Below are positions 30,593-60,086 of a stretch of DNA of 64,000 nt, one piece after another. The stretch is taken from positions 8,808-72,807 of the forward strand of contig CANNFC010000001.1 of NCBI GenBank assembly GCA_947503755.1. The letters run 5' to 3'. The position numbers and the translations under genes are program-made. Source of the DNA: Rickettsiales bacterium. Its GTDB lineage: Bacteria > Pseudomonadota > Alphaproteobacteria > Rickettsiales > UBA1997. Positions within the stretch are counted from its first letter, which is position 1. The number at the start of each line of letters is the position of its first letter. Below the pieces are notes generated by a model, which was given only the letters and a program-made list of their open reading frames with translations, made no database searches and was not told the origin of the DNA.

Positions 30593-31366
30593 ATGCAAGT
30601 TAATCAAATAATTTGCGGTGATTGTCGCGATGTTTTATCTGGTTTTCCCGACAAAACATTCGATTTAATTTTTGCCGATCCTCCATATAATTTACAACTA
30701 CAACAAACCCTTACTAGACCAGATAACAGTATTGTTGAGGGTGTTGATGATGATTGGGATAAATTTTCTAGTTTTGCCGAATATGATGAATTTTGCCAAC
30801 AATGGCTCACTCAATGTAGAAGAACTCTAAAAGACGATGGAGCAATTTGGGTTATTGGTAGTTATCACAACATTTTTCGAATCGGTAAAATGATGATGGA
30901 TATGGGGTTTTGGATTTTAAACGATGTGCAGTGGTATAAAAAAAACCCTATGCCAAATTTTCGAGGTGTAAGATTTACAAATGCTACAGAAACTTTATTG
31001 TGGTGTAAAAAAAGTTCCGATCAAAAAAAATATACTTTCAATTATCAGCTTATGAAAGAACTTAACGGTGGCAAACAAATGAAATCGGTTTGGGAGATTG
31101 GTTTATGCACTGGAAAAGAAAGATTACGAGATGAAAATGGCAATAAATTACATTCCACTCAAAAACCGCAAGAATTATTACGCCGAGTTATTTTATCATC
31201 TTCAAAAGAAGGCGATTTAATTCTCGATCCTTTCTCTGGAAGCGGGACAACCGCAATGGTTGCAAAAACTTATAATAGAAACTTTATTGGTATAGAAAAA
31301 GAACAAAAATATGTTGATATTTCTTTAGCTAGATTACAAGATGCAATACAAGATTACTTATTATGA
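30593..31366 (+). CDS. Beta-class N6-adenine DNA methyltransferase, short CcrM/HinfI-like form (257 aa)
   Basis: IFADPPYNLQL...RPDNS...DDDWDKFSSFAEYDEF...DDGAIWVIGSYHNIFR...GFWILNDVQWYKKNPMPNFRGVRFTNATETLLWCKK...HSTQKP...DPFSGSGTT closely follows the CcrM/M.HinfI sequence pattern. It lacks the roughly 90-100 aa C-terminal extension of CcrM. Confidence 0.85.
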   Translation: MQVNQIICGDCRDVLSGFPDKTFDLIFADPPYNLQLQQTLTRPDNSIVEGVDDDWDKFSSFAEYDEFCQQWLTQCRRTLKDDGAIWVIGSYHNIFRIGKMMMDMGFWILNDVQWYKKNPMPNFRGVRFTNATETLLWCKKSSDQKKYTFNYQLMKELNGGKQMKSVWEIGLCTGKERLRDENGNKLHSTQKPQELLRRVILSSSKEGDLILDPFSGSGTTAMVAKTYNRNFIGIEKEQKYVDISLARLQDAIQDYLL

Positions 31367-32166
31367 TAACACAATCAGATTTAGAAAATATTATTAGAGA
31401 CTCTATTATAAAACTTGTCAATGAAAGTTTATCTAATAAAAATATCGCAAAACAATATAATAAACATCAAGAAAAAATTCATTTTATTCCTATTCAATAC
31501 AGAATTATAGGCGGTATATTACAATCTCTAAACATTAAATTTGGTAATTTTTTACAAAATCTTTTATCGGCAATCATTTTAAAAGAAGAAAATCTAATAC
31601 TTCATCAGTTATCGGGCAAAAGAATTGCATCTTCTTTTTCAAAAGAAGTTAATAACATTATAGAAGAATATATTTATGATAGAGAAAATAAAGAAGCGAC
31701 CGAATTGGAATTAAATTTAAATTTTACTAAGTTAAAGGAAAATATTACCAATAAAAACAAAATTAACAATGAAGCAATTTTCTTTAAGCAAGATATAGAT
31801 TTATTATTTGAAACAAAAAATCAGATAATTTATTTAGAAATTAAATACAACGACGATCACGATACAGGAAAATTTGCCGATATTAATCGTAAATTTATAA
31901 AAACATTCTTATTAATACAAAATCATATTTCTCCATCTTCAACAAAACCAATAATGCCAATAATTTATTATTTTAATAAAAAAATAAGATGGCAATCTCA
32001 TTATATTCCAAAAGAAAATGTGTTAAGAGGCGGACAGTTATTTGATAAATACTTTTCAACGAAATTTGAACTGTTAGAAGATGCAATAAAAAATATTTCT
32101 CATAATCAAGAATTTATAAAAATTTTTGATGAAATGTCTGAAAATGTAAAAAATCTTTCTTTATAA
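31363..32166 (+). CDS. Uncharacterised protein, candidate Type II restriction endonuclease cognate to the upstream methyltransferase
   Basis: Its start overlaps the methyltransferase stop (ATGA at 31363-31366). It has a PD-(D/E)XK-like motif (DIDLLF...IIYLEIKY). It is 267 aa long. A 100-nt sample (31701-31800) hand-counted at 19% GC, against 36% for 30801-30900 in the methyltransferase. Confidence 0.45.
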   Translation: MITQSDLENIIRDSIIKLVNESLSNKNIAKQYNKHQEKIHFIPIQYRIIGGILQSLNIKFGNFLQNLLSAIILKEENLILHQLSGKRIASSFSKEVNNIIEEYIYDRENKEATELELNLNFTKLKENITNKNKINNEAIFFKQDIDLLFETKNQIIYLEIKYNDDHDTGKFADINRKFIKTFLLIQNHISPSSTKPIMPIIYYFNKKIRWQSHYIPKENVLRGGQLFDKYFSTKFELLEDAIKNISHNQEFIKIFDEMSENVKNLSL

Positions 32167-38416: not shown

Positions 38417-41400
38417 TTAAATATTCTCTACCGTTGAGATTTCTTCTTCGGTGAGTTGATACAGGGCATAAACCATTTCGTCGATTTTGGCATCTGTTTG
38501 GTTGAAAGTGAGTTGCAATTTTTTGACTTCGGCTTGCTTTTCTTTTAATCGAGCAAGCCACTTTTCTTCTTGTTTGGCAGTGAGATTTATTTTTTGTAAA
38601 GTGATGGCTTGCAAAAACTCTCCCCAAGAAAGTTCGCTCCACCTAGCAAGCTGTTTATTGATGTTTATTGTGGCAAATTCTCCTGTAAGTAATTCAAAAA
38701 ATTGAGTGTTAATAAAATCAATTTGGCTGTTAATTTGCATCATCAACTCAACTTTTTGAACAATTTCGGTTTGTTGTTTTTGGCTTGCAATGATGATTGG
38801 TATTTTGCACAGCGGTTCAATATCTAGCTGATAGTTTGAGCCTTGCATTTTACCTTTATTTTTTAAATAAAAAGCGACAAGTTTTGAGTTTAAAACCCCA
38901 GTAAGATATTTTAGGTTTATATCGTTTGGTTTGACGATATTAAAAGTTCTGTCAACATAAGAATCAAAATCAATATAACTAAAACGAGGTCTTAATGTTG
39001 ATTTTCTAACGACTAATATTTTTTTCCCTAAAAATATTATTTCTTTTCTAGCACAATGTAAACCATAAGGCTTATTCATTGAGGTTATAATTTTTTTAAA
39101 TTTATCTAAATGTTTTTTGATGTTTGGATAATTGTTAATTTTATTTGGTTTTTTAAAGCTGGAATTTGTATAAATTGCCCATCTAGTGTTTTTATTATTG
39201 GCAAAATATCTGTCAATTTCTTTGGTGGTATATTCTGGTTTGATAATTTCAAGCTCTTGTGTAGTTAAGTTTAAAGCATCTTTTTCTGCTGTGGTGATGC
39301 TAAAAATTCCGTCGCCAATTTTAAAATCTTTACCAAGAATCTTTTTACTTTTTTTATTAACAATATCTTGCGAATAATCTATTGTGCTAAAAATATCATC
39401 TTTTTTCAATCTATAGTTACCTACTTTTTCGAGTTTATCAAAAAGTGGTTTTAAATTATCACTTACAAAGTGAATGGTTTTATCAAGTAAATCAGCGGTT
39501 GCAAGCTCTATTTTTTCAAAAGTGCTTTTTGTGAGGCTTTCAGAAATTGCCACTTGCTTTTGGGTAAATAATTTTTCGGTTGTGTTATTTAGTTTGCAAT
39601 ACTCTACAATATGTGTGGCGGTTGGTGTTTTTTGCAAGCAAAATATCATAGTTTGAATTTCGGCGGTTTTAAAAACTTTGTTATCGTTAAAATCAACATA
39701 CGAAATCAGTGTTGCTTCTTGCAAAATTTTGTTACGAGTTTTTGAGGCTCCGTGGTTGGTAAGTAAGCTGTTTGGGGCAATATAAGATAAGTAGCAGTTT
39801 TTGTTTAATAAATCAAGCCCAAGACAAGCAAAAAATTGCCAAAAATCCATTTTGCCTTGATAATATTGCGAAGCAAAAGGAGGCTTGTTTTGTTGTGGCG
39901 AATGTTTGGTTGATTTATACTTTTTATTAGCAGGGTTTAGTGGCTCAAAAATTTCTCGGTGCTTGTCTTCTTTAATGTAGGGCGGGTTGCCAATAATAAC
40001 ATCAAATTTAAAATTAAATTCTTTTTGCCAATCAAATGCTAGCGACTTGCTAAATATATTAGCTTGCCTTTCTTTGTAAATATCGCCAATCATGTCGTTG
40101 GCGGTGCCTGTTAATTCGTAAATAACTTTGCCTTCGTATTCGTCATATCGACCAGCGATGTTTTCATCTTCTATTAAACTGTTGCCGATTTTGATGTTAT
40201 CGTTGAGATTTAATAGTTTTTCTTTGTGATGGGCGGTTTTTAGCCACAGTGAAAGCTTGGTAATTTCAACCGAATTTGGGTTGATGTCGACTCCATAAAT
40301 ATTATTTTGTAAAATAAACTGATGATGATTGCTGATGCCTAATTTTCTGGCTTCGTTGGTTAAAAAATCAAAAACCTCTACTAAAAAAGCTCCACTTCCG
40401 CAAGCGGGATCGAGCACTTTTATAGAGAGCAAAGCTTTTTTATATTCTTCTAAAAACTTTGTTGAACCTTCGTAAAAAATTGTGGCAATTTGTGTTTTTT
40501 TGTCGTTTAGCCATTTGCCAATTGTTTGACTTACGATATATTTGGTAACATAAGAAGGGGTGTAGTAGACTCCAAATTTTTCTTGCTCGTTTTTTTCTGT
40601 TGTGGCAAAGTTTATGTCTTCTTGGGCTTCGTTTTGTAGATCGGAAATTGATTTTTCAAAAATATGCCCCAAAATTTCAACATCAAGATCGCTTCTAAAT
40701 GCATAATCGATAACAAACAACAACTTATCAATTTCTTCATCTTCAATGCAAAGCTCATCAAGAAATTTATCTTCTTTAAATAGCCCGCCGTTAAATGCTG
40801 GCACTTGCGGATTGCTTTTATTGTTGCCAATATTAAGAGAACGAAAAATATCTTTTAGATGATTATATTTAGAGCCATAAACCTGCTCTTTAACAAATTT
40901 ACTTAATGTATTGTGCGGTATTAGGCCCCTTTCTTGGCAAAATACAATAAAAATTATTCTTCTTAACAGTTTATCTGATGCATAAAGGCAAAAACCTTTG
41001 CGAGATTGTAATTGATTAACCTCAATTAAATGCTGTTTTAACCTTGTTCGATTGTGTTTGTATAAATTATAAAAATCTTCTTGAATTCTTTCTTTTTCTT
41101 CTTCGCGATCAACAATAATTTTATGCACCGGCGATTGTTGATTTTGCTTGGTAAACAGCCTGTCAAAAGATAGTAAAAAGTGGAATTCTTTTAGTTTGTT
41201 GGCATTTTTGGCAAGCTCGGTAATAAAAAACGAGTGATATTTGCTAGAGTCAGATGCCTTATAAAGCCGAATTTCGGCAAAGTTGCTCACAATTACCCAT
41301 TCGCACTTGCCACCAACTTTTGGGGCATATAAAAAACCCTGCTCAATGGGAGTGATGGCAAGGCCTTTGCGGTTTTGATTTTTATCAAGATTAACATTAC

Positions 41401-41767
41401 TTGCTTTCAGCTCAATTACTGCTCGAATATCGCCTGCTTTGATATTGCTTGTGGTGATATCTTGATTTTGGTAGCTTTGCAAATTAAAGCCCAAAATGCC
41501 ATCTGGTCTTCTGCCGTCGTTGGTGCCAGATTCCCACCATAAAGTATTGTGTTGATTGCCTGTTTCGCCTTGATAACCAAGGATTTTAACAAAAAAATCT
41601 TGCAAAAAATTGTGTTGATGCTGTATTTCGTTTTCTATGCCACAAGAATTTTCGCAGGCATTTTGCCATCTTGCTAAAATATTGTTTTGGATGTTTGAAA
41701 TATCGTCATCGGAGAGCTGGTGATAACTAGTAACATCGAGTGATTTTTGATTAAAGAGGCTGTTCAT
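38417..41767 (-). CDS. Single-polypeptide Type IIG/IIL restriction-modification enzyme (N-terminal nuclease, gamma-class N6-adenine MTase, C-terminal specificity region)
   Basis: The 1116-aa protein has N-terminal RRPDGILGF...AVIELKAS (PD...ExK). Motif I VLDPACGSGAFL precedes motif IV IIGNPPYI. The C-terminal tail ALYQLTEEEISTVE is typical of this enzyme class. Confidence 0.8.
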   Translation of the reverse strand: MNSLFNQKSLDVTSYHQLSDDDISNIQNNILARWQNACENSCGIENEIQHQHNFLQDFFVKILGYQGETGNQHNTLWWESGTNDGRRPDGILGFNLQSYQNQDITTSNIKAGDIRAVIELKASNVNLDKNQNRKGLAITPIEQGFLYAPKVGGKCEWVIVSNFAEIRLYKASDSSKYHSFFITELAKNANKLKEFHFLLSFDRLFTKQNQQSPVHKIIVDREEEKERIQEDFYNLYKHNRTRLKQHLIEVNQLQSRKGFCLYASDKLLRRIIFIVFCQERGLIPHNTLSKFVKEQVYGSKYNHLKDIFRSLNIGNNKSNPQVPAFNGGLFKEDKFLDELCIEDEEIDKLLFVIDYAFRSDLDVEILGHIFEKSISDLQNEAQEDINFATTEKNEQEKFGVYYTPSYVTKYIVSQTIGKWLNDKKTQIATIFYEGSTKFLEEYKKALLSIKVLDPACGSGAFLVEVFDFLTNEARKLGISNHHQFILQNNIYGVDINPNSVEITKLSLWLKTAHHKEKLLNLNDNIKIGNSLIEDENIAGRYDEYEGKVIYELTGTANDMIGDIYKERQANIFSKSLAFDWQKEFNFKFDVIIGNPPYIKEDKHREIFEPLNPANKKYKSTKHSPQQNKPPFASQYYQGKMDFWQFFACLGLDLLNKNCYLSYIAPNSLLTNHGASKTRNKILQEATLISYVDFNDNKVFKTAEIQTMIFCLQKTPTATHIVEYCKLNNTTEKLFTQKQVAISESLTKSTFEKIELATADLLDKTIHFVSDNLKPLFDKLEKVGNYRLKKDDIFSTIDYSQDIVNKKSKKILGKDFKIGDGIFSITTAEKDALNLTTQELEIIKPEYTTKEIDRYFANNKNTRWAIYTNSSFKKPNKINNYPNIKKHLDKFKKIITSMNKPYGLHCARKEIIFLGKKILVVRKSTLRPRFSYIDFDSYVDRTFNIVKPNDINLKYLTGVLNSKLVAFYLKNKGKMQGSNYQLDIEPLCKIPIIIASQKQQTEIVQKVELMMQINSQIDFINTQFFELLTGEFATININKQLARWSELSWGEFLQAITLQKINLTAKQEEKWLARLKEKQAEVKKLQLTFNQTDAKIDEMVYALYQLTEEEISTVENI

Positions 41768-41865
41768 TTTACTATTTTAAAGCTGTTTTTTAAAAAAAAT
41801 GATTTTATAGCTGGCTACTTAAAAATCTAGATTTATTTTGGTTGAATGAAAGATGGTATAAACTT

Positions 41866-42159
41866 CGATATAATACCATTTACATAAATAAATACCACAC
41901 TTCGATCTAAATTCCCCTTCTTGTAGAAGGGGTGGCACGAAGTGCCGGGGTAGTGTCGGCAACACACGGTAGAATCTTCTTCGAAAACACATCGGCGATC
42001 GTCTTCCAACACTACCTTGGTCTTTTTTTGCTGTCGCAAAAAAATCCACCCCTTCTAAAAAAGGGGAATTTTGCACCGCATTCGATCTAAATTTCTCTTC
42101 CAGGGGATGGGGAATTTAGATCGAAGTGTGGTATTTATTTATGTAAATGGTATTATATC
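41866..42159. mobile_element. MITE-like non-autonomous element (294 bp) with perfect 51-bp terminal inverted repeats; repeat cluster E
   Basis: 41866-41916 is the exact reverse complement of 42109-42159 (gatataataccatttacataaataaataccacacttcgatctaaattcccc). The interior is a full R1 module plus a mini-palindrome. It encodes no protein. Confidence 0.85.
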
Positions 42160-42163
42160 ATCT

Positions 42164-42511
42164 TTAAAAAAAGTTTTTGTGGTGTCGAAAAGAAAAAGGC
42201 GAAAATTCAACAAAATCGAATCTTCGTAACAAGTCAGATAAATGAAGGTTTTTGCCTACAAAATAATCGGCGGTAGATTTTATGCGATTAATTTGTTTGA
42301 CAAGCAATATTTGTTCGATGTTGTGTTGTTTAGATCTTGCTTTGACCTCGATAAAAACTAGTTGCTTTTGGTGTAAAGCGATGATGTCTATTTCGCCAGC
42401 AAAACATTTATAGCGGTTGGCTAAAATTTTATAGCCTTGGCAAAATAGCAAAAAAAGACAAATTTTTTCGGCAATAATGCCAAATTTATAGCTATTTTTT
42501 TTCTTGTTCAT
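42164..42511 (-). CDS. yraN: YraN-family (UPF0102) endonuclease-like protein
   Basis: The 115-aa protein has GEIDIIA...LVFIEVKAR, the D...E.K core of the family. Confidence 0.8.
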   Translation of the reverse strand: MNKKKNSYKFGIIAEKICLFLLFCQGYKILANRYKCFAGEIDIIALHQKQLVFIEVKARSKQHNIEQILLVKQINRIKSTADYFVGKNLHLSDLLRRFDFVEFSPFSFRHHKNFF

Positions 42512-43418
42512 TGTTGGTTTTGGTTTGGGTTTGGGTTTGGTGTTGGTGTTGTAAAATTAATTGATAAATCGTTTTTTTGTTGGTATGAAATTTCACAGCC
42601 AATTGAGTGGCTAAATCTTTGCTTGATTTGGCAGAAGGCAAATATAAAGAAATATCTTGCAAAATATCATTTTCGCAATATTGATTTTGGCTAGATTTTT
42701 CGAGTAATAGCACTATTTCGCCCTTGATTTTACTTGGGTTTTCCTGAAGATAAGTTAAGACTTCGCTGATTGTGCCTGTAATAATTTGTTCGTGTATTTT
42801 GGTGAGTTCTTTGGCAACGGCAATTCTTCTGTTGCCAAGAGTTTCAAGCATAATGTTGAGGCTATCTAGCAATCTTTTGGCGGTTTCAAAAAAAATTAAA
42901 CTGAAATTGTTGGGAAATTCTTGCAAAAAAGTGGTTTTTGCTTGGGTTTTTTCGGGTAAAAAGCCTGCAAATAAAAACTGATCGCAAGCAATGCCCGAAA
43001 TAGAAATTGCTGAAACTGCCGAACAACAACCGGGTATGGTGTAGATTGGATAATTTAGTTGTTGTAAAAAACGAATTAGTTTATAGCCGGGGTCAGAAAT
43101 TAGCGGAGTGCCAGCATCAGAAACCAAGGCTACAATTTGTTGATTTTGCAAGAGATCGACAATGTTTTGCCTAGTTTTTTCGTTGCTATGGTCGTTGTAG
43201 GTGATGGTTTTTTTATTTTTGATGCCAAAAAAATTAAGCAAGGTTAAGGTTTTGCTGGTGTCTTCGCACACAATGGTATGGCAATTTTCAAGCACATATA
43301 AAGCACGAAAAGTGATGTCGGCCAAGTTGCCAATTGGGGTAGAAACCACAAACAGACCGCTAGTTAATTGTTGTTGTTGCGAAAAAAGTTGTTGATATAA
43401 TTGTTTAAACATTGCCAC
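42492..43418 (-). CDS. rsmI: 16S rRNA (cytidine1402-2'-O)-methyltransferase RsmI
   Basis: The TP-methylase fold shows GLFVVSTPIGNLADITFRAL, CEDT and SDAGTPLISDPG. The C-terminal QHQHQTQTQTKT tail is encoded by a hexanucleotide repeat. Confidence 0.85.
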   Translation of the reverse strand: MAMFKQLYQQLFSQQQQLTSGLFVVSTPIGNLADITFRALYVLENCHTIVCEDTSKTLTLLNFFGIKNKKTITYNDHSNEKTRQNIVDLLQNQQIVALVSDAGTPLISDPGYKLIRFLQQLNYPIYTIPGCCSAVSAISISGIACDQFLFAGFLPEKTQAKTTFLQEFPNNFSLIFFETAKRLLDSLNIMLETLGNRRIAVAKELTKIHEQIITGTISEVLTYLQENPSKIKGEIVLLLEKSSQNQYCENDILQDISLYLPSAKSSKDLATQLAVKFHTNKKTIYQLILQHQHQTQTQTKTNNEQEKK

Positions 43419-44343
43419 CCGAAATAATTATTAGAAATTTTTGTTGTTGATAATGCTGGTTTTGTGCTAAAAAATCGGCACAGCCCGCCATTGCCAAAGC
43501 AGATGTGTATTCGATATTTTGTTGTAAATACAAAGTGAGTTGTTGTTGCCAAAAAATAATTTTTTCTTCAGAAATTTCTAAAATTTTATGTAATTGTTTT
43601 AGATAAAAAAAACATCGATCAGAAACTTGCAAAGTTCTTGCCCCATCGGCTACGGTGTTGGGCGATTGCTGAAAGCCGATAATTTTATTTTGCTGAACCG
43701 ACAGGCTGGCATCGTTTGCAATGTTTGGCTCGCAACCAATAACTTTTGTTTGTGTGTAAACTTTTTGGCTTGCTAAAAAACAGCCCGAAAGCAAACCGCC
43801 ACCGCCACAGCTGGCAAAAATTGCCTCAAAATTTCGTGCTGTAACGAGGGCATCTTCTAAAATGCAGGTGCCTTGCCCTGCAATAATTTGATCGTTATCG
43901 GATGGATGAAAAAAAACATAACCTTCTTGCTCTTTTTGTTGGCAGGCCAAAATGGCTTCGAGCCTAGTGTTTAGCAAAACCAGATCTGCATTTTGCGATT
44001 TTACTGCTTCTAATTTGCTTGCAGTGCAGTTTGTGGTCATAAAAATTAGGGTGGGAATGCCAAAAGTTTTACCAACCAAAGCCAAAGCATAACCGTGGTT
44101 GCCAGAGCTGTAAGCGACCATTTTTTTAGGAAAAAAACCAAATTTTTCGCGATAGGCAAGCACGGCATTAAAAGCCCCTCTGGCTTTGAAAGAATTGGCT
44201 TTTTGTTGATTTTCCATTTTAAATAAAATGGTGTTTTTGAGTAGTTCGTTTAATTTTTGGCTACTAAATATTGGAGTGTGGTTAATGTAAGGAGCGATGC
44301 GATTTAGAGCTTGTTGAATGCTATCAAAATTAAGATCACTCAT
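43405..44343 (-). CDS. PLP-dependent threonine/serine dehydratase-like enzyme (PALP fold)
   Basis: The PLP-lysine motif [14 protein letters not shown] and the glycine loop CGGGGLLSG are present. The start is placed at MSDLNF (ATG at 44343), 2 nt after the carB-fragment stop. Confidence 0.8.
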
Positions 44344-45985
44344 AAGTTGAATAAAAATAAGAAGTAGTAGTGGCAAACTCGGCAGAACAAGAATCGACCC
44401 TTTTATAGATGGGATGAATGTTAAATTGATATCGTAATAGCCTAATCTCTTGCTCAGAAGCATTGCAAAGTTTGGCGATTCGCTTGTCAGAAAAACCTTG
44501 TTTTTTGAGGCTAAATAAATATTGCGGATCGTTTGGAATGCCGTTTCTGCTGATTTGTTTTTCGGTTTGCACTAAATTGTGGATTTGCTCTAAAAACCAA
44601 GGATCGTAATTAGAAATTTGGTTGATTTCTGTGGCGGTTAGGCCTTCGCGAAAGGCTTGGGCGATAACTAACAAACGATTTGAAGCGGGAATTTTTAATT
44701 GTTGTTTGATGATGTGTTGTCTTTGTTCGTGATTGTCGGAGTTAATAAAAACATCTTCTAGGCCACTGAGGTTGTTTTCGAGAGATCGCAAGGCTTTTTG
44801 CAAGCTTTCGGCAAAACATCGGCCAATTGCCATTACTTCGCCTACCGATTTCATTGAGCTTGATAAAACATTGGTGCTACTTTTAAATTTTTCAAAAGTG
44901 AACTTAGGAATTTTGGTGACGATGTAATCTATGGTTGGCTCAAAAGATGCCGGTGTTTTGTGATTGGTGATTTCGTTGCTGATTTCATCTAGAGTAAAAC
45001 CAACCGCCAACTTGGCGGCCACTTTGGCAATAGGAAAGCCAGTTGCTTTTGAGGCGAGGGCGGAAGATCGAGAAACTCGAGGATTCATTTCGATTATGGT
45101 CATTTGCCCGTTTTCTGGATTGACCGCAAACTGCACATTGGCACCGCCTGTTTCAACCCCAATTTCACGAAGCACAGCCAAAGAAGCATTTCGCATATGC
45201 TGATATTCTTTGTCGGTGAGGGTGAGAGCAGGGGCAACGGTGATAGAATCACCAGTGTGCACCCCCATTGGATCTATGTTTTCTATCGAGCAAATAATGA
45301 TGCCGTTATCGTTTTTATCACGTACAACCTCCATTTCGTATTCTTTCCAGCCGATAATTGATTTGTCGATTAACACTTCTTTTACTGGCGAAATAGATAA
45401 ACCATATTGAATAATTTGCAAATATTCTTCGACTGTGTAGGCGACACCGCCACCTGCACCTCCCATAGTAAAGGAAGGGCGAATAATGGCGGGCAAGCCG
45501 ATTTCTGCCAAAGCTTCTTTTGCTTGCTCTAAACTGTTGACTAATTTATTTTTGGGAGTAGATAGGCCGATTTTATCCATTGCTTGTTGAAACAAAGCAC
45601 GATCTTCGGCTTTTTTGATGGCATCGATAGATGCCCCGATAAGCTCAACATTGTGTTTGGCAAGAACCCCCTTTTTAGCTAGTGCCAAGGCACAATTAAG
45701 AGCGGTTTGCCCGCCTACGGTTGGCAACAATGCACAGGGTTTTTCGATTGCAATGATGGTTTCAACAACTTCGGGGGTGATGGGCTCAATATAAGTGCGA
45801 TCGGCAATGTTGTGGTCGGTCATTATGGTGGCGGGATTGGAATTAACCAAAATCACTTTATAACCTTCGTTTCTTAGGGCTTTGCAGGCTTGAGTGCCCG
45901 AATAATCAAATTCGCAAGCCTGCCCAATAACAATTGGCCCTGCACCGATGATGAGTATAGATTTGAGATCTGTTCTTTTTGGCAT
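44336..45985 (-). CDS. carB: Carbamoyl-phosphate synthase large subunit, N-terminal half only (carboxyphosphate and oligomerisation domains)
   Basis: [37 protein letters not shown]... runs to ...[17 protein letters not shown] followed by a stop. This is the boundary where full-length CarB (~1070 aa) continues into its second ATP-grasp half. No carA or second half is adjacent. Confidence 0.8.
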
Positions 45986-46115
45986 AAAATTTGCTTGATA
46001 AGATAATAGCACTGTTTCATGGCGAAATTTGGAATGCAACAGTGCCATAAAAAATTTGCAATAATTTTAGCAATAATTCTTTAAAAAAGCAATATAATTT
46101 TATGGTGAAAAAAAA

Positions 46116-46532
46116 TCATTGTATAAAACAACATTCTTCTTGTTGCATAGGTTGTCCATCAGGTGATTGAAGATTTGTTTGCGGAGAAAGCGGTGTTATT
46201 CCCATTTCATTTTTTATTGCATTTATTAAATTCTCAACTTGAAATTGAGCACCAGCATTTTTAGTTGGATCTGAAGGTTTACTTATGTTTAAAAACTTTT
46301 TTGTATCTAATTTTAATTTTTCAATTGTTTTTGTCGTTTGTGTAGAATCGCTATAAGTTGGACCTAATGAATCTCTCAATGTATCCGTCCAACTAGTAGA
46401 AGGTTGAAAAAGCCGTTGACTTTCTTCTAGAACATACAAATATTGTTCGATAAATTTAGGTTTTATTGCTTTTATTTTATTTAATGATTCTAAAATACTG
46501 TTTATAGATTCTTCTTGTGTTGTTGTAGGCAT
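46116..46532 (-). CDS. Orphan hypothetical protein ending in a CaaX-like box (CCFIQ)
   Basis: The ORF is 138 aa from the ATG at 46532 (the ORF-track TTG extension is discounted). I recognised no motif. The C-terminus is ...QQEECCFIQ followed by a stop. Confidence 0.5.
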   Translation of the reverse strand: MPTTTQEESINSILESLNKIKAIKPKFIEQYLYVLEESQRLFQPSTSWTDTLRDSLGPTYSDSTQTTKTIEKLKLDTKKFLNISKPSDPTKNAGAQFQVENLINAIKNEMGITPLSPQTNLQSPDGQPMQQEECCFIQ

Positions 46533-46694
46533 ATAAATTTTGGTTGTTTTTAATATAAAAAGAAATAGTCTTTTAAAATATTTATAAAACAAAATACAAT
46601 TTTATCTAAAAAACACAAAATATGAAATTGCTTTATGAAATTTATTTTTTCATTTATAATTTTAAATTTCAAGAATTATTGTAGTTTTAGCGAA

Positions 46695-48560
46695 TTATTT
46701 TTTTGATACTTTTTGCTGAAAGAGTAGTCGTAGACTATTAAAAATAGCGATAACATCAATAATTTGTTGCAAAACCGCCCCTTGAGCTGGCGAAATATAG
46801 CCAAAACTTGCCAAAATCATACCAAATAAACTAAATAACATACCGCCAACAGCGCTTTGCAGGGCGATTTTTCGGGTGTCGAGGCTTAAATGTATTAGTT
46901 TATCTACTTTTAATAAATTATTTTCTAAAATTATCGCATTTGCCGATTCTCCTGCAATTTGATTGTGTTTAGCAAAAGCGATAGAAGCGGTTGCCAAAAG
47001 CAGAGCAGGAGCATCGTTGATGCCGTCGCCAACAAATAGTGTTGGTGATTTTTGGCTATAATTTTTGACAATAGCTAATTTTTCTTCTGGCGATTTTTCG
47101 GAATAGCATTTATGAATGCCAAGTTTTGCCCCCAAATAATTCACCTGCTCTCGCTGATCGCCAGAAAGCAAAATAACTTCAGAAAAATTATGTTCTAACC
47201 CTAAATGACTAATAAAAGAGCCGGTTTCGGGCCTTTCGACATCTTCAAAAACTAATATGGCAGAAACTGTGTTGTTGATAATAATTACACATTCTAAACC
47301 GATTTGTTTTGGCGGTAAATTTTGATGATTGGCAAAATTTTTGGCATTATTTCTGTTGGTGATGACAAGATGAAAATTATTAACAATTCCGCTGATGCCA
47401 TAACCAGGTTTTTCGCTTACTTGACTAGCATTGGTTAAAATAATTTTTTGCTCTTTGGCATAGTTTAAAACCGCCGATGCCAAAGGGTGGCGAGAATGTC
47501 TTTCGAGGCTGGCAACTTTTTGAATAATTTGCGATTCGGTGTAGTTGCTGATGTTGGCAATTGTGGTGAGTTTTGGTTCTCCGTAGGTGAGAGTGCCGGT
47601 TTTGTCAAAAATGGCGGTTGTGCAAGTTGGTAAATATTCGAGTATTCTGGCATCTCTAATAATTATTCCTTGTTTTGCGGCTATAGAAATGGCACTAATA
47701 ATGGTTATTGGCACCGCGATTAATAACGGGCAGGGAGTGGCAATGGTAAGAACTGCTAAAAATCTCACTAAATCGGAAGTAAAATAATAGCATAAACCAG
47801 CGATTAACAAAGTGAGAGGCACGAAAAAAACAGCAATTTTGTCGGTGAGTTTTTGCAGATTAGGCTTTTCTTGTTGAGCTTTTTTCATAATGTCAACAAT
47901 TTGGGCATAGCGAGAGTTTTCTGCTAATTTGCTGGCCTTAATAACAATGGTTGATTCGCCATTTATTGAGCCAGAAAGCACTTGCGAACCAGTAGTTTTG
48001 CTGATTTTATAAGGCTCGCCAGTTAAATAAGATTCATCCATATTGCCATAACCCTCAACAACTTCGCCATCAACTGGGGCGGTTTCAAAAGGAAAAATGG
48101 CAATAAGATCGTCAATTTTGATGTCGTTAAGTTTGATATCAAAAAAATTATCTTCTTTTTTAAGATGGGCTAAAGCGGGTATTCTTTGCATTAAATTTTC
48201 GAGAGCAAAAGAAGCTTTATGAGAGGCGAATTCTTCGAGAGCTAAACCGCTTACCAGCATTAATAAAATCAGGGTTGCAGTGAAAGGTTGTTGTAAATAA
48301 ATTGCCAAAATAAAAGCGAGTAAAGCGATGAGATCGGCGGTGAGATTGCCGGTGATTAATTTTTTTAACATTTGCCAAAAAAAAGGCATAAAGCCAACAA
48401 AACTAACAATGTAAAGCAGGATTGTGGAGAATTTTTCTAGATTGTATAAAGAGCAAATTCCATGAAAAACTAGAAGAAATAAAATGGTTAGCAATAATAG
48501 ATGAGGCCATTTTTTGCAATAATTTATAAAAGAAGTGAATTTTGTTTGTTCTTTTTTCAT
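46695..48560 (-). CDS. P1B-type (heavy-metal) P-type ATPase lacking an N-terminal metal-binding domain
   Basis: TGEP, the transmembrane TPCP motif, the phosphorylation site DKTGTLT and the hinge GDGINDAP are present. The start is placed at MKKEQ (ATG at 48560). A TTG at 48575 is an alternative. Confidence 0.85.
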   Translation of the reverse strand: MKKEQTKFTSFINYCKKWPHLLLLTILFLLVFHGICSLYNLEKFSTILLYIVSFVGFMPFFWQMLKKLITGNLTADLIALLAFILAIYLQQPFTATLILLMLVSGLALEEFASHKASFALENLMQRIPALAHLKKEDNFFDIKLNDIKIDDLIAIFPFETAPVDGEVVEGYGNMDESYLTGEPYKISKTTGSQVLSGSINGESTIVIKASKLAENSRYAQIVDIMKKAQQEKPNLQKLTDKIAVFFVPLTLLIAGLCYYFTSDLVRFLAVLTIATPCPLLIAVPITIISAISIAAKQGIIIRDARILEYLPTCTTAIFDKTGTLTYGEPKLTTIANISNYTESQIIQKVASLERHSRHPLASAVLNYAKEQKIILTNASQVSEKPGYGISGIVNNFHLVITNRNNAKNFANHQNLPPKQIGLECVIIINNTVSAILVFEDVERPETGSFISHLGLEHNFSEVILLSGDQREQVNYLGAKLGIHKCYSEKSPEEKLAIVKNYSQKSPTLFVGDGINDAPALLLATASIAFAKHNQIAGESANAIILENNLLKVDKLIHLSLDTRKIALQSAVGGMLFSLFGMILASFGYISPAQGAVLQQIIDVIAIFNSLRLLFQQKVSKK

Positions 48561-48588
48561 AAAATTTGAGACCAATTTAATTTTGTTG

Positions 48589-50070
48589 CTAATTTAACAA
48601 AGAGATGGTGACAGGCAACAGATTATTTTCTTTTTTAATTAAAAAGGTGATGTTTTTTTCGCTAGTTTGAGCGGTTTTAATAATTTTTTGCATTTGAGTA
48701 AAATTAGTGACAATTTGTTGATTAACACTCACCACAATATCGCCAACCGCAATACCTTTGTAATAGGCATCATATCTGGGGTCGACTGCACTTACCACCA
48801 AATAATTGTCGATATTTGTTTTGTTGGTAATTTTTTCTTCAGCAAAACTCATTCCTAAAAGCTTGCCTATGGTTTTTGCAATTGGTTTTATAGTGGTTTT
48901 TTTATCGTCTTCTTTGGGAGTTTTTTCGATAATTAAATTGACAGTTTGAGTTTTGCCATAGCGAAAAATCAGCACTTTAACGATTTTGCCAATGGGTAGT
49001 TTATTTACTACTTTTGGTAGGGTTTTAACATCGGTAATTTCTTGCTCATCGAACTGCAAAATAACATCCGAAGGAATGATGCCCGCCTTGTCTGCAGGAC
49101 CATTTTTTGTGATATCGCTAACGAAAGCACCTTTTAAAGTGTTTAACTTGATAGAATTAGCCAAATCTTGATTTAAATCTTGTGCCATCACACCGATCCA
49201 ACCTCTAACAACTTCGCCTTGCTCTTTGAGTTGCTTGAGAATTTGAAAAGCATTGTTAGAAGGAGTGGCAAAAGCAATGCCAACATTGCCACCAGAAGGA
49301 GAAAAAATAGAAGTGCTGATGCCTACAACTTCGCCCTTGCTGTTAAAAAGAGGGCCACCAGAATTTCCTTTGTTTATAGAAGTGTCTGTTTGCAAATATT
49401 CGTCTGATTGAGAAGAGCTAACATCTCTGCCTCTGGCAGATAATATGCCAAGAGAAACCGAACTGCCAAAACCATAAGGATTGCCAATGGCAATTAACCA
49501 ATCGCCAATTTTTACTCTCGAAGAATCGCCAAAACGAGCAAATTTTAATTCTTTGGTTGGGTTAATTTTTAACAAAGCTAAATCAGATTTGCGATCAAAA
49601 GCCACTAAATTTGCTTTATAAAAAGTTTTGTCTTGCAAGCTAATGCTGATTTCAAGGGCATCTTCGATAACATGATAATTGGTGGCGATGTAGCCATCTT
49701 TAGAAATTAAAAAACCAGAACCAATAGAGATTATTTTTTTCTTATCAATAATTTGTTTGTCTAGTTGTTTTTTTAGCTCTTCAAAAATAGGGGTGGGCGG
49801 AAAGTTGCCTAGCATATTGCTGTCTAACACGATGGAGTTTTGATTTTTAGAGCCCTGAGTGGCAGAAATATTAACGACACTTGGCAATAAATTTTCGATT
49901 AAATCGGCAAAACTAGGAATTAATTGAGATTTGTTTGGAACTTCTTCGAGATTATTAAATTTGTTTTCTGTTTTATTGATTTCTGGCTTGTTAACTTCTT
50001 GTGCAAAAGATTGATTTAGATTGGCAAAAATAAAAAAAGAAAAGAGTAAAAATAATATTTGAAATAACAT
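48589..50070 (-). CDS. htrA: Periplasmic serine endoprotease DegP/HtrA with two PDZ domains
   Basis: A signal peptide and the catalytic TNYHV, D(L)ALLK and GNSGGPL motifs are present. Confidence 0.9.
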   Translation of the reverse strand: MLFQILFLLFSFFIFANLNQSFAQEVNKPEINKTENKFNNLEEVPNKSQLIPSFADLIENLLPSVVNISATQGSKNQNSIVLDSNMLGNFPPTPIFEELKKQLDKQIIDKKKIISIGSGFLISKDGYIATNYHVIEDALEISISLQDKTFYKANLVAFDRKSDLALLKINPTKELKFARFGDSSRVKIGDWLIAIGNPYGFGSSVSLGILSARGRDVSSSQSDEYLQTDTSINKGNSGGPLFNSKGEVVGISTSIFSPSGGNVGIAFATPSNNAFQILKQLKEQGEVVRGWIGVMAQDLNQDLANSIKLNTLKGAFVSDITKNGPADKAGIIPSDVILQFDEQEITDVKTLPKVVNKLPIGKIVKVLIFRYGKTQTVNLIIEKTPKEDDKKTTIKPIAKTIGKLLGMSFAEEKITNKTNIDNYLVVSAVDPRYDAYYKGIAVGDIVVSVNQQIVTNFTQMQKIIKTAQTSEKNITFLIKKENNLLPVTISLLN

Positions 50071-50933
50071 TATTTATTACCAAAGTATTTAAAAAATTCT
50101 CCATCAGAAGAAATTATCATTTTTGTTTTGTTATTTTCGTTTAACATAGATTTTTGATAGGCTTGCATTGAGCGATAAAAATCGGCAAATTCAGGATCTT
50201 TACCAAAAGAAGAGGCATAAATTTTATTAGCTTCCGCTTCTGCTTCACCTCGAACAATATCGGCATCTTTTTTTGCTTCTGCCTCAATGATGGTTTTTTG
50301 TTTATCGGCTTCTGCCCTGATTTTTTGGGCTTCTTGAGCACCTTTTGCTCTGATTTCTTTGGCTTCTTTTTCTCTTTCGGTTTGCATTCGACCATAAATT
50401 GCATCGGAATTTTCTTTTGGTAAATCGGTTCGCATAATGCGTACATCAACAATTTCGATGCCAAAAATTTCTGAAGAACTGCTAACCACATCTTTGATAT
50501 CTTTCATAATGCTACCACGATTTTCGGTGAGAAGCTCGTTTAAAAAAATTTCACCAATTACTTGACGAAGGCTAGAATCAAGAATGCCGGCAAGTTTATT
50601 GGCTAAGCCCTGATTATTGACAACTGTGGTATAAAACTTGACAGGATCAACTATTTTATATTTGGCAAAAGCATTGATAAGCAATCTTTTTTGATCGGAA
50701 GCAATAACTTCTTGCTCGGGCAAGACAAGATCAATAATTCTTTTATCAAAAAAAATAGCATTTTGCACTAAAGGAATTTTATGAGAAATGCCAGCGGTGT
50801 TGACAGTTTTAATGACCTTACCAAACTGTAAAATCAATGCTTGTTTTCTTTGATCGACAATAAAAAAAGTGTTAAAAATCAACAAGAAAAAAGTAAAAAC
50901 AATGGCAGAAATTTTTATTTGCAAACTAGACAT
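50070..50933 (-). CDS. hflC: Protease modulator HflC (SPFH/band 7)
   Basis: The 287-aa protein has an N-terminal TM segment and an SPFH domain. It follows hflK. Confidence 0.85.
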   Translation of the reverse strand: MSSLQIKISAIVFTFFLLIFNTFFIVDQRKQALILQFGKVIKTVNTAGISHKIPLVQNAIFFDKRIIDLVLPEQEVIASDQKRLLINAFAKYKIVDPVKFYTTVVNNQGLANKLAGILDSSLRQVIGEIFLNELLTENRGSIMKDIKDVVSSSSEIFGIEIVDVRIMRTDLPKENSDAIYGRMQTEREKEAKEIRAKGAQEAQKIRAEADKQKTIIEAEAKKDADIVRGEAEAEANKIYASSFGKDPEFADFYRSMQAYQKSMLNENNKTKMIISSDGEFFKYFGNK

Positions 50934-50939
50934 AAAAAG

Positions 50940-52142
50940 CTATTTTTTTAAATTTTGATTATCAAAGAAATATGGCATAACCATATTTTTGCTGATGTTT
51001 TTATCGATATAAATTTTTTCATTTTGGCTGTAGATTTTTTCCATAGTTTCGAGATAAATTCTTTTTTTCGTCACTTGCTTAGACTTAGCATATTGATTAT
51101 AAACCGCTAAAAACCTAGATGCTTCACCTTCTGAATTTGCTACCACTTGTTTGGCATAGGCTTCGGCCTCTTCTTTCATTTGTGATGCCAAGCCCTTGGC
51201 TCTTGGAATGATATCGTTGGCATAGGCCTGAGCTTGATTGATTTCTTTTTCTTTATCGGCTTTGGCGGTTTGCACATCTAAGAAAGAATCTCTTACTTGC
51301 GAAGGCGGATCGACCCTTCTTAGTTGAACCTTAACAATTCTGATGCCAGAAGCATAAGAATTAAGAACTTCTTGTAGTAAGTTTTTGGCATCGTCTTCGA
51401 TTTGTAATTTGCCATCAGAAAGAGCATTGGCAATTGGGTTTCTGGCTATAATTTCTCTCATAGAGCTTTCGGCTGATTGCCTGATTGATTGATAAGGATC
51501 GGCGATATTAAAAACAAAATCTTTGATATCAGAAATTTGCCATTGTATTTGAAATTCTACATCAACAATATTTTCGTCGCCTGTAAGCATTAGGCTTTCG
51601 GCATTAAGATTGCGATTTAGATATTTGTTTTCAAGAGAAGAAAAGCCAAACTCTTCGATGTTGACGGCGGTGACATTTTTTTTGATTAATTGACCAACGG
51701 GATAGGGCAGGTAATAGTTTAGGCCAGGGCTTGCCACTTGTGAAAATTTGCCAAAATATAGCACTACCCCATTTTCGCTTGGGTTGACTTTATAAACACC
51801 AAGCGACAACCAAATAGCAAAAACAGCAATGGCAATGTTGCGATAGTTTGGCTGGTTGTTATGATAAAATTTTTTGATGATTTGTTGTAAAATATCGTCA
51901 AGATTATTAAAAAAGAAGGGATCTTTTGGATTTTTCGGTGGTTTTTGCTGATTATTTTGATTGTTTTGTTTGTTGTTGCTTTGATTATTTTGTGTTGGTT
52001 GTTGATTATTTTTTGGTGGTTGCCATGAGGAACCCCAAGGATCTTGCAAACAAAGTTTTTGCCCCAAAGATTTAAAAAAAACTTTTTTAGTAGCAACAAA
52101 AGCAAGTAAAATATAGGTAAAAAAAGATTTAATAGTAAACAT
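50940..52142 (-). CDS. hflK: Protease modulator HflK (SPFH/band 7)
   Basis: The 400-aa protein has a Q/N-rich N-terminal region, a TM segment, an SPFH domain and a coiled-coil tail. Confidence 0.85.
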   Translation of the reverse strand: MFTIKSFFTYILLAFVATKKVFFKSLGQKLCLQDPWGSSWQPPKNNQQPTQNNQSNNKQNNQNNQQKPPKNPKDPFFFNNLDDILQQIIKKFYHNNQPNYRNIAIAVFAIWLSLGVYKVNPSENGVVLYFGKFSQVASPGLNYYLPYPVGQLIKKNVTAVNIEEFGFSSLENKYLNRNLNAESLMLTGDENIVDVEFQIQWQISDIKDFVFNIADPYQSIRQSAESSMREIIARNPIANALSDGKLQIEDDAKNLLQEVLNSYASGIRIVKVQLRRVDPPSQVRDSFLDVQTAKADKEKEINQAQAYANDIIPRAKGLASQMKEEAEAYAKQVVANSEGEASRFLAVYNQYAKSKQVTKKRIYLETMEKIYSQNEKIYIDKNISKNMVMPYFFDNQNLKK

Positions 52143-53914: not shown

Positions 53915-54808
53915 TTATAGTTCTAATATTTTTGGTTCTGAGGAAAGAGGTTTTGCATTTGCTGAAGATAACTGATGATATTGAATAGATTCAAGCATAA
54001 GAGTTTTCTGATTAAATATTGACATTTCATTTAGCCAGTTTATGACTTCCTGAGAACTAATTTGATTGATGGTAATCTTTCCATCTTGGAAGTCTAAAAT
54101 TTGGTTATAGTTATCTTGATTTTTAAAAAAAGATTCTATGACACGATTTGTTGTTGCTTGTTTAATTAGTTCTATTTTTTCATCAAATATTGTTTTTATT
54201 TCTGCTTTTGTTTTTTGTGGAAAGATTTTTTGTAATCTTAATAAAGCTATTTTTTTTAAATCATCATCTTCTAAGGATTGTAAACTAGTTTCAAAAGCAT
54301 CTACACCGTATAAAAAAAATTCTAATGGTTCTATTTCAAGACTAAGATTATCAATATCTAATATTTTAATTTTTTTACCATAAACAACAGCATTAACCTC
54401 GCCAGGATATTCTGGAGTATTTGTGGGAGCTAAATCTCCAGCTACACCCATAATGCTTGCTAAAGCTAAATCATTTTTCAGCTGTTGAGAAGATTTTTTC
54501 TTAAGATGTTTTATTAATTGAATATATTCTTTTTCTGGATCGTTAATAGTATGTAATATAGAAATGATAGCATCATTGGTAATTGTTTTTATTTGTGGTG
54601 GTAATAATGTTAAAAACAAATTTTGTTTTTGCAAAAATGTAAGACATTCTAAGTTAGATTTTGTTATTCTTGCTGTAAAATCACCCAATGGCGGAGTCAA
54701 AAGTCTGATATGTTCATTACTTTCTTTATTAATAGAAGAATAAGTTCTGTCTGGGTCATGACTAGATGCGGATGTCAAAACAAATAATCCTAGGAGAAAT
54801 TTATTCAT
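53915..54808 (-). CDS. Orphan hypothetical exported protein inserted between sdhA and sdhB
   Basis: The ORF is 297 aa with an N-terminal signal-like [17 protein letters not shown] recognised no motif. It is visibly more AT-rich than the flanking sdh genes. Confidence 0.55.
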
Positions 54809-58679: not shown

Positions 58680-60086
58680 CTATAACATATCTCGATGTTG
58701 TTCTTTTAAAGCTTCGCCACTAAGCCATCTTTCTTCTGCTGCTTGATAAGATCTATTTGCTTGCTCATAAGCTTTTTGCAAGGCTGAAAGACGAGCAAAT
58801 TCATCCATCGGGAGATCATAATTATCTTTGGCTCTTTTGAGAATTTTCATTGTAAGTTTTTCTGTTTGCTCATGGGTAAGGTGCAGTCCTTCGCATAAAT
58901 ATTCTAAACAAATGCCGTTAACATTGCTAGTATCGGTTATGTTATGCAGTAAATTATAATAATAACCTCTTGTTTGTGGATTATGTGTCGCATGTTTTGG
59001 ACTATCTTCTTTTAAAATAAAAGATACAGCTTGTAAAACTTCTGATAAGAAACTAACTTCAAATATACTATAAAAATTAGCTTTCTTAGGTAAAGAGCAA
59101 GTTGCGCTAGGAGTTGTTGCTGGCTTTGAACCAGATGAAGATACTTGAGAAGAGGCGGTTTTTGTATCGCTATCTTGAGATGGTGCATAATCCATTTATG
59201 TTAAGAATGCCCTAGTTAAATTTGCGGCAAATTCTTTAATTTCGCGTGCCTGAGATATTTTGATAGTTCCTTTAGGAGTTCTTTTTTCTTTTGTGTTAAA
59301 TTGTTGACAAAGTTTTTGTTGTTGTTCATAAAATTGTTGCACCAAAGTATCTGCATCATCATCCACATCTATTGTTGATGGTGATGAATTCTTAGTTGGT
59401 TATTTTTCTGCTGGCATTGTTTTAGTTGCGCTTGAAGCGGATAATTTTGTTTGACGAGCTTTTAATGCATCTTGAAGAAAACTTTTTCGACCATCAATAG
59501 ATTCAACCAAATCATCGATATTTCTTGCATCTTCTTCTTTTGTTTTTGCTGTTTCCCCTTGTTTTTTTGATTCTCCTCTGTTTCTTTTAGTTTTCGCACC
59601 CATTTTTCGTGCACTTTGAAGAGGCAAATTAGTATTTTCGACTTTTTTTTGCACTTCTTTAATACAATTTTCTCGAAACGTATCAATACAATTCAAATTT
59701 TTAGCTCCAATAGAAAGAGATTTTGGTATTTGTGTTGAAAATTTTTCTGCAACTTCTTTAATATTAACTTCATGTTTTTTTCCTTTTTGATAAGATTTTA
59801 CAGAAGATTTTTGTGTATTTTCAAAATCAAAATACGATTGTATCGTTACCTCATTTTTTTGAAAATAATCTAACATAGAAACTATTCTACCATCTTTTAC
59901 AGTAATTTTTGTATAATGTTCTTGTTGTTTATATTCAATTACACCATTTAATAAAGTAGCTTTTTCATCTAGATGTTTTTCATCAAAACTCCCTCTAAAA
60001 ACAACTTCTTTACCAGTAGTAGGTGATTTTAAACTTTGTAAAGTTAATATTCCATGATCATTATCTACTCTATAAATATGTTTCAA
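58680..60086 (-). pseudogene. Orphan reading frame broken into three collinear, same-frame pieces by two TAA codons (59400-59402 and 59196-59198)
   Basis: The pieces of 228, 67 and 171 codons all share one frame. I translated the 67-codon middle piece by hand and found no stop and no ATG. The first piece begins with TTG directly beside repeat fragment G. Confidence 0.6.

Follow-up and report, generated by a model that had tools for sequence, protein, structure and literature searches.

A hypervariable small protein with a conserved CaaX box in an uncultured Rickettsiales lineage: a candidate for lipidation by a eukaryotic host

Known CaaX proteins and the protein encoded at 46116-46532

Host-prenylated bacterial effectors are already known. 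Legionella pneumophila has AnkB and seven to eleven Pel effectors that rely on prenylation by the host: the cysteine of their C-terminal CaaX box is lipidated by the host farnesyltransferase (FTase) or geranylgeranyltransferase-I (GGTase-I) and is needed for anchoring to the vacuole or host membranes (PMC2916131, PMC13081727). In Salmonella, a C-terminal CaaX-type motif promotes the association of GtgE with host membranes (PMC13423502). Here we describe a small protein with such an ending, encoded in a 64,000-nucleotide stretch of a Rickettsiales bacterium (assembly GCA_947503755.1, contig CANNFC010000001.1, positions 8,808 to 72,807; the whole stretch is called the window below). The gene, which we call the CaaX gene, lies at 46116-46532 on the minus strand (ATG at 46532, stop codon TGA at 46116-46118). 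Its product of 138 amino acids ends in ...QQEECCFIQ, directly followed by the TGA. Translation verified the coordinates, strand, start and CaaX-type ending (...CCFIQ*) given by a first-pass annotation, which had seen in this open reading frame (ORF) an orphan protein and a candidate host-targeted effector. That annotation did not contain the most striking feature of the gene, its hypervariability between near-identical genomes.

The protein resembles AnkB and PelA-K in having its cysteine at position -4 and in lacking a signal peptide; several of these Legionella proteins, too, are without another recognisable domain. It has no sequence or fold similarity to them, it comes from an uncultured alphaproteobacterium and not from the Legionellales, and no Dot/Icm system was seen in the contigs examined here. 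In a loose comparison of our own, its C-terminal glutamates recall the Dot/Icm E-block. Within-species hypervariability with a ratio of nonsynonymous to synonymous substitution rates (dN/dS) well above 1 is a further difference: we found no such report for the Pel effectors, for which no specific search was made.

No homology to the host-prenylated type III effectors SifA and GtgE of Salmonella was found either, and no type III system was seen in the contigs examined. SifA carries an upstream cysteine that is acylated, and the first-pass annotation had invoked this model for the extra cysteine of the window protein. The proposal was not borne out, an upstream cysteine being present in only 3 of the 18 family members described below and not conserved.

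Among eukaryotic proteins, the Ras/Rho GTPases, PRL phosphatases and DnaJ proteins share with the CaaX protein a folded domain, a flexible variable linker and a CaaX box in which X is Q, S or L. PRL phosphatases end in CCIQ or CCVQ and DnaJ proteins in CASQ or CAHQ; the CCFIQ end of the window allele is, as we see it, similar to the CCIQ end of PRL-1. Unlike in these eukaryotic proteins, the domain is not a GTPase, a phosphatase or a J domain, a polybasic second signal is absent and the neighbourhood is bacterial.

We know of no bacterial enzyme that reads a C-terminal CaaX box and of no bacterial prenyltransferase acting on a CaaX cysteine. To our knowledge, a CaaX box of a bacterial protein is established to serve one purpose only, its lipidation by the host once the protein has been delivered. 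No paper was found that links CaaX motifs to Rickettsiales, Holosporales or other protist-associated alphaproteobacteria. As a family of host-prenylated effectors, the one described here would be new, unrelated to the known effectors, and in a lineage for which we found none reported.

Constraint on the CaaX box and architecture of the protein

The background frequency of CaaX-like endings was determined in 1.4 Mb of unrelated proteobacterial loci. Such an ending was present in 3 of 2951 ORFs of at least 100 amino acids (0.10%), and a cysteine at -4 in 2.2%. At this background, a genome of 1000-2000 genes is expected to hold one to a few CaaX endings by chance. The same count in the window, a check that the first-pass annotation had suggested for the genome, returned a single case among 56 ORFs of at least 100 amino acids, namely the product of 46116-46532. 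A single ending is within chance, and the finding therefore depends on comparative evidence; it is the conservation among relatives that exceeds the chance level.

A search of 5.8 billion proteins yielded eight relatives at 61-79% identity. Further distant, small relatives were obtained by a profile search of 1.84 billion cluster representatives, and a second profile search added five more. The family totals 18 distinct full-length members of 125-168 amino acids, at 25-80% identity, all from metagenome assemblies or metagenome-assembled genomes (MAGs) and none of them annotated. No relative was found when the GTDB species-representative genomes were searched with the family alignment, and a scan of JGI metagenomes gave two loci, one of which was known already. 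The word orphan is accurate in that no known domain matches the protein, and inaccurate in that a small family exists in a narrow clade. Relatives were absent from the phage records, plasmid records and viral contigs searched, and an origin from a phage or plasmid was rejected on this basis.

The cysteine is located exactly at -4 in all 18 full-length members, across 12 tetrapeptides: CFIQ, CVIQ, CVIL, CSMQ, CSTQ, CSIQ, CTIL, CVIT, CLIS, CRIS, CLLS and CPVS. The a1 position is unconstrained, with seven residues (F, V, S, T, L, R and P). At a2 there is an isoleucine in 14 members and otherwise L, V, M or T, and X is Q (nine members), S (six), L (two) or T (one). In substrates of the prenyltransferases a1 is solvent-exposed, a hydrophobic pocket accommodates a2, and the choice between FTase and GGTase-I is set by X. 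As judged from their sequences, all 12 tetrapeptides fit these rules, and the pattern of a free a1 and a constrained a2 and X is as expected from prenyltransferase specificity. A yeast reporter has been used to assay two of the family endings, CVIL and CTIL, which human GGTase-I geranylgeranylated completely, and the C-x-x-Q endings CASQ and CAHQ, which were strict farnesylation substrates (PMC11152559).

The register of the motif is fixed as well. With the I106 column taken as its start, the tail has a length of 26-65 residues and differs by up to 39 residues between members, with a constant distance from the cysteine to the stop codon. In P0006, P0007, P0009 and P0039 the linker is lengthened by PQTNLQSPGGQPMQQE-type unit duplications. 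Of the tail columns that are present in every member, only P117 and the cysteine are invariant (2/28), and cysteine residues elsewhere in the family are rare (0.3%) and not conserved. Six sequenced alleles encode the -4 cysteine by TGT and three by TGC, which is a synonymous change in a gene otherwise almost without synonymous changes. The CaaX box looks functionally constrained, the strongest arguments from the alignment being the fixed register and the combination of a free a1 with a constrained a2 and X.

The structure was predicted with AlphaFold2, using the 18-member alignment (mean predicted local distance difference test score (pLDDT) 69.7, predicted template modelling score 0.65). Helices were predicted at residues 6-21, 27-41, 46-56, 64-78 and 99-110, giving a five-helix N-terminal domain (residues 4-110; 46203-46523, minus strand), which is the main target of the diversifying selection described below. 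The pLDDT was approximately 60 at residues 111-120 and below 50 from residue 118 to the C-terminus. The segment of residues 111-134 (46131-46202, minus strand) is a predicted flexible, disordered linker, rich in proline and glutamine and also in serine, which holds the non-conserved second cysteine, C134. It is followed by the CaaX box C135-F136-I137-Q138 (46119-46130, minus strand), a predicted farnesylation site. Fifteen residues are invariant in 18/18 members (M1, P2, I13, L14, L17, Y31, L32, L35, T77, F80, F97, L102, I106, P117 and C135); apart from P117 and C135 these are mostly helix-core positions. Variation peaks in helices 3 and 4 (H3, H4) and in the loops. According to the model, the fold is kept while the surface is replaced, and the layout of a folded domain, a flexible linker and a CaaX box is the usual one of prenylated proteins.

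No stretch of 15 residues in the protein is hydrophobic (Kyte-Doolittle maximum 0.46), and thus there is neither a transmembrane segment nor, as the first-pass annotation had stated for the ATG at 46532, a signal peptide. The chance probability of 138 open codons at a guanine-cytosine (GC) content of 34% is 3e-5. A longer version starting at a TTG (158 amino acids) only adds translated leader. We conclude that the ORF is a real gene, encoding a small modular protein of helical domain, linker and CaaX box.

Searches of the Pfam, NCBIfam, PADLOC and PHROG libraries gave no match common to the family members, and for neither model did a Foldseek search of the PDB return a match below E = 1. A match to the phasin family PhaP_Bmeg (PF09602; 17.1 bits, E = 0.0057) was under the gathering cut-off of 28.3 bits and seems to reflect a likeness in helical composition only. 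The profile of the close alleles matched, with its positions 26-90, 6-10 tandem TPR_12 units of giant NB-ARC-TPR proteins, including a turn resembling LGPxxxxT. Membership of TPR_12 or TPR_10 was rejected, as the units scored 3-13 bits each and the total, 65.8 bits at first, was down to 21.6 bits when the profile covered the broader family. The protein thus shares a profile likeness with the repeats of the kinesin-light-chain type in NB-ARC/STAND proteins, but the Pfam TPR models miss it, no TPR match being found at E <= 10. A TPR-like helical-hairpin scaffold for protein binding is a lead only.

Allelic variation and its boundaries

In five loci from different samples the CaaX gene occupies the same slot, in the order hflK-hflC-degP-ATPase-[CaaX gene]-carB'. 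In the window it is flanked by the gene of a P-type ATPase (46695-48575) and by carB' (44336-46048), which corresponds to the 5' half of carB, all on the minus strand. Between the five loci the ATPase, CarB' and DegP proteins are 97-99% identical, versus 34-75% for the CaaX protein. The DNA identity is 96-100% up to the 5' leader, 26-94% inside the ORF and again 98-100% from the first base past the stop codon.

Counts of nonsynonymous to synonymous differences (Nei-Gojobori) were 39:0 between the window and L086 and 42:0 between the window and L094, and 25:0, 68:6 and 94:9 for other pairs. In the flanks the count was 7:31, so that the excess of replacements in the CaaX gene is highly significant (Fisher p = 4e-15); the flanking genes have a dN/dS of 0.01-0.28 at a dS of 0.02-0.17. 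The differences between alleles fall at codon positions 1 and 2, comprise all base-pair types and are spread over the whole ORF, together with in-frame insertions and deletions. The dS of the closest alleles is no higher than that of the flanks, which indicates that the replacements are recent and selected and that these are not old alleles under balancing selection. In distant allele pairs dS is 0.26-0.46, versus 0.03-0.17 in the flanks, which makes some exchange of alleles likely. Elsewhere in the approximately 20 kb that are shared, the variation consists of presence/absence differences and an MmeI-type restriction gene, and in no other gene examined was the dense replacement pattern of the CaaX gene found.

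The pattern is repeated in a second subfamily (P0051 and P0173-P0177), whose members are 25-29% identical to the window protein and are likewise encoded directly upstream of carB', in a genome in which carB' is 81% identical to that of the window at the DNA level. Two alleles of this subfamily differ by 39:1 nonsynonymous to synonymous changes, versus 0:6 in carB' (p = 7e-7); over the 200 nt upstream of the gene, their identity is 99%. Upstream of the gene there is not the ATPase but a sequence that by eye resembles the 3' part of a tRNA gene; ARAGORN calls no tRNA on that contig end. The recurrence in a sister species shows that the pattern is a property of the gene family and not of one population. 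The CaaX protein is under intense diversifying selection, with a dN/dS well above 1, in two species-level lineages. Some 40 replacements without a synonymous change, in DNA that is 97-100% identical on either side, is among the more extreme signals of diversification known to us for a bacterial gene. With the lipidation signal and the core of the fold fixed while the surface changes, the alleles pinpoint the indispensable parts of the protein and provide 12 natural CaaX variants.

The divergence has sharp boundaries at the ORF. On the 5' side, the allele alignment defines a conserved leader and promoter region (46533-46617, minus strand). The first 65 nt or so upstream of the ATG are invariant among alleles save two positions, and the distal 20 nt or so (to 46617) are kept in four of the five loci, L005 having lost them. 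The hexamers at 46626-46599 resemble a promoter by consensus match only. At the junction 46617/46618 other alleles carry an element of 160-294 nt, which the window does not have. This element resembles a miniature inverted-repeat transposable element and is bounded by a perfect inverted repeat (GGCACTGTTGCAT...ATGCAACAGTGCC, or GGCACTGTTGCAT[T/C]CC...GGGATGCAACAGTGCC). In L086 (9622-9914) it contains three tandem units of approximately 45 nt, and L005 and L088 have equivalents. On the 3' side, allele identity and a motif search define a conserved untranslated region (46008-46115, minus strand) ending in a hairpin at 46008-46046 (GGCACTGTTGCAT...ATGAAACAGTGCT), which is a short version of the inverted repeat of the element. 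A motif search showed no significant repetition of GGCACTGTTGCAT in the window. The hairpin also overlaps what is probably a mis-called N-terminal extension of carB', the likely true start being MPKRTDLKS at 45985.

A divergent member, P0046 (ending in CVIT), was found adjoining the 3' end of the EF-Tu gene in L091 (1-966). It shares its sample of origin with the L088 allele and carries the same leader, 3' untranslated region and inverted-repeat element, so that the unit behaves as a cassette that is present at a second site. This copy may be a paralogue or may be mobile as a cassette, and alleles may have been exchanged with it as a donor.

A candidate effector, alternative explanations and genome context

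We put at roughly 0.55 the probability that the CaaX protein is an effector which a eukaryotic host prenylates, which is thereby anchored to a membrane, and which is engaged in an arms race with a factor of that host. The fixed motif and register, the grammar of the motif, the flexible linker, the absence of a signal peptide and the diversifying selection are all as expected of a membrane-anchored effector in conflict with its host. In the mechanism we propose, the protein would be delivered into the cytosol of a eukaryote, probably a freshwater protist, by a Sec-independent route, with which the absence of a signal peptide is consistent. The host FTase (for alleles ending in Q, S or T) or GGTase-I (for alleles ending in L) would lipidate Cys135, after which the host Rce1 and ICMT would trim and methylate the C-terminal end. 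The lipid would tether the helical domain to a membrane, either a host endomembrane or the one that surrounds the bacterium, and there the domain would bind, or be recognised by, a host factor. Reciprocal adaptation with this factor would drive the very fast replacement on the surface of the domain, with the core and the lipidation signal remaining fixed. The eukaryotic host, the translocation, the prenylation, the membrane anchoring and the nature of the target are what we infer. The idea of a host-targeted effector in the first-pass annotation has thus gained a constrained CaaX box, a suitable layout and diversifying selection, and has lost the acylated second cysteine on which it partly leaned.

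If the effector reading is true, the strategy of host prenylation, for which Legionella and Salmonella are the main established cases, is also used by an uncultured lineage of alphaproteobacteria. Where no eukaryotic prenyltransferase is available, a strictly conserved CaaX box is not known to be of use; it would therefore mark bacteria that are known only from metagenomes as associated with eukaryotes. In a bolder version, which we offer as a doubtful extension, the gene would be a strain-specific determinant of host compatibility: the alleles of the lipid-anchored effector would decide which protist genotypes can be colonised, in a matching-allele system carried by a cassette bounded by inverted repeats. 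The freshwater lineage, with its fairly complete metabolism, would then be a Legionella-like facultative intracellular associate of protists.

Several observations weigh against a host-prenylated effector. The invariance of a single column is only moderately improbable when 2 of the 28 tail columns and 15 of the 138 reference positions are invariant. The conservative a2 position is partly an effect of the genetic code, as most single-base neighbours of the codon ATA encode L, V, M or T. There is neither a polybasic stretch nor a conserved second cysteine, and most residues just before the cysteine are neutral or acidic. The search for secretion systems suggested in the first-pass annotation covered the window and the overlapping and extending contigs examined, and no genes of type III, IV or VI systems were seen there; beyond the window edges there were only housekeeping genes, for IF3, ArgRS, RecR, LeuRS and an AddB-like protein. 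The window contains genes for the biosynthesis of purines, arginine, folate and pyridoxal phosphate, unlike a strongly reduced obligate symbiont. Finally, the nearest labelled relatives are distant MAGs (about 75-78% identity in SdhA and GyrA), and the association with a eukaryote is one that we infer.

The gene content of the window (GC content 34%) includes the metabolic genes sdhCDAB, sucC, NAD-GDH, purL, purE, argC, folP, pdxJ and PCC, and genes for TonB/ExbBD, PstB, a CcrM-like methylase, a prepilin peptidase and two restriction-modification systems. The intracellular symbiont of the first-pass annotation is not established by such a set of biosynthesis, TonB/ExbBD, Pst and restriction-modification genes. 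It suits a facultative associate or some Rickettsiales families, and intracellularity does not follow from it. SdhA is at most 76% identical to that of any GTDB species-representative genome, the best matches (75-76%) being labelled Rickettsiales. For GyrA one relative at 87% was found, followed by many at 74-79% labelled Proteobacteria/Pseudomonadota or Rickettsiales bacterium. The genome with the best SdhA match (L007) is GC-rich and shares gene order with the window only in sdhAB.

The main rival to the effector reading is that the protein acts within or on the bacterial cell in a conflict that involves no eukaryote, for example in phage sensing or in anti-phage or anti-competitor activity. 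The cysteine would then be kept for disulfide, metal or covalent chemistry, and its likeness to a CaaX box would be coincidental. We regard this as improbable, and as the alternative to be taken most seriously. A dN/dS above 1 is also typical of genes in phage-bacterium conflict, variable restriction-modification genes and small mobile repeats are found in the vicinity of the locus, chance gives approximately 0.1% of ORFs a CaaX-like ending, and neither a secretion system nor evidence of a host was found in the contigs examined. A defence or phage protein is not what the searches point to, however, since family members have no PADLOC or PHROG match in common and partner genes are missing, the neighbours, the P-type ATPase and carB', being housekeeping genes that are 99% conserved. 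Nor does a redox or metal-binding role need a cysteine at exactly -4, an aliphatic a2, a free a1 or a disordered spacer of 26-65 residues, and other cysteines are rare in the family and not conserved.

Lipidation by the bacterium itself, a signal resembling a pherotype and a mutational mechanism are less likely. If the protein were exported or surface-located and lipidated at its C-terminal cysteine by a bacterial enzyme, its variable domain would be exposed to grazers, phages and neighbouring cells. The strictly kept motif and register would fit such a protein, a variable surface over a conserved core resembles variable surface antigens, and bacteria do encode Rce1-like CPBP proteases. But the protein has neither a signal peptide nor another known export signal, and no gene for a prenyltransferase, a CPBP protease or a methyltransferase was found within approximately 10 kb at any locus. 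We consider this explanation quite unlikely; a bacterium that itself performs CaaX-type cysteine lipidation, of a kind not known in bacteria, would be a still more radical conclusion than the strain-specific determinant of host compatibility.

Alleles that differ extremely among strains identical in other respects, between flanks that are conserved, and a lipidation-type motif are also what would be seen for a strain-specific signal or pherotype determinant, like comQXP with its isoprenylated ComX, or the fungal a-factor. This is very unlikely here. A co-varying receptor is needed, yet the neighbours (the P-type ATPase and carB', 99% conserved) are invariant, with no ComQ-like modifying enzyme or receptor kinase adjacent. 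Moreover, the product is a folded helical domain of 125-170 amino acids and not a short propeptide, and ComX is modified on a tryptophan and not on a CaaX cysteine.

We give just as little credence to the idea that the variation arises from targeted mutagenesis or cassette exchange (a diversity-generating retroelement, or gene conversion between paralogous cassettes) and not from selection on point mutations. The sharp boundaries of the divergence at the ORF, the second copy beside EF-Tu in L091, the inverted-repeat elements flanking the cassette and the raised dS of distant pairs would be in line with such a process. The changes themselves, of all base-pair types, spread over the whole ORF and accompanied by codon insertions and deletions, argue against it. 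So do the close alleles without any synonymous difference, unlike the outcome of gene conversion from diverged copies; and a mutational mechanism would explain the variability only, not the fixed CaaX box. A diversity-generating retroelement was rejected specifically: no repeat of the ORF was found in 40000-52000 (12 kb), the gene lists of the loci contain no reverse transcriptase and the substitution pattern is wrong, since such an element would restrict variation to template adenines in a C-terminal variable region.

A spurious ORF in AT-rich intergenic DNA, suggested by the lack of an obvious Shine-Dalgarno sequence and of a known domain, is effectively refuted by the comparison of alleles, since at least 18 alleles, with identities as low as 25%, keep the frame open, with all insertions and deletions in frame; they also conserve the pattern of the hydrophobic core, the predicted fold is helical and substitutions are concentrated at codon positions 1 and 2.

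Some other features of the region were recorded. Downstream of the CaaX gene, carB' (44336-46048, minus strand) encodes the N-terminal half of carbamoyl-phosphate synthase (549-570 amino acids, CPSase_L D1-D3) and overlaps the downstream gene of the PALP family. Its dN/dS of approximately 0.03 reflects strong purifying selection, and it is therefore a functional split or truncated carB and not a pseudogene. An inverted repeat of 63 nt at 41867-42159, whose arms are 92% complementary and separated by 167 nt, is part of a dispersed repeat of approximately 165 nt, which in other strains is also located between purE and hflK (L086:3719-3883, L001:5-171 and L098:13125-13289).

The restriction-modification gene of the MmeI/Eco57I type (38417-41767, minus strand) is 87% identical to that of L086 and 96% to that of L087. 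Beside this gene, L086 (14529-19751) has two ORFs missing from the window, of 259 amino acids (with a sub-threshold ankyrin match) and 95 amino acids. At 30593-32166 (plus strand) the CcrM-like N6-adenine methyltransferase gene overlaps an ORF of 267 amino acids without a Pfam match by 4 nt; instead of a cell-cycle methylase, the two may constitute a restriction-modification system.

An ORF of 297 amino acids (53915-54808, minus strand), with an N-terminus resembling a signal peptide and no Pfam match, interrupts the succession of sdhA and sdhB. The insertion is present in L098 and absent in L086 and L087, where sdhA and sdhB are adjacent, and is thus strain-variable within a core operon. Between prmC and argC lie two hydrophilic ORFs of 171 and 228 amino acids (58680-59195 and 59400-60086, minus strand) without a significant Pfam match; the equivalent region of L098 is annotated as three ORFs of 228, 56 and 158 amino acids.

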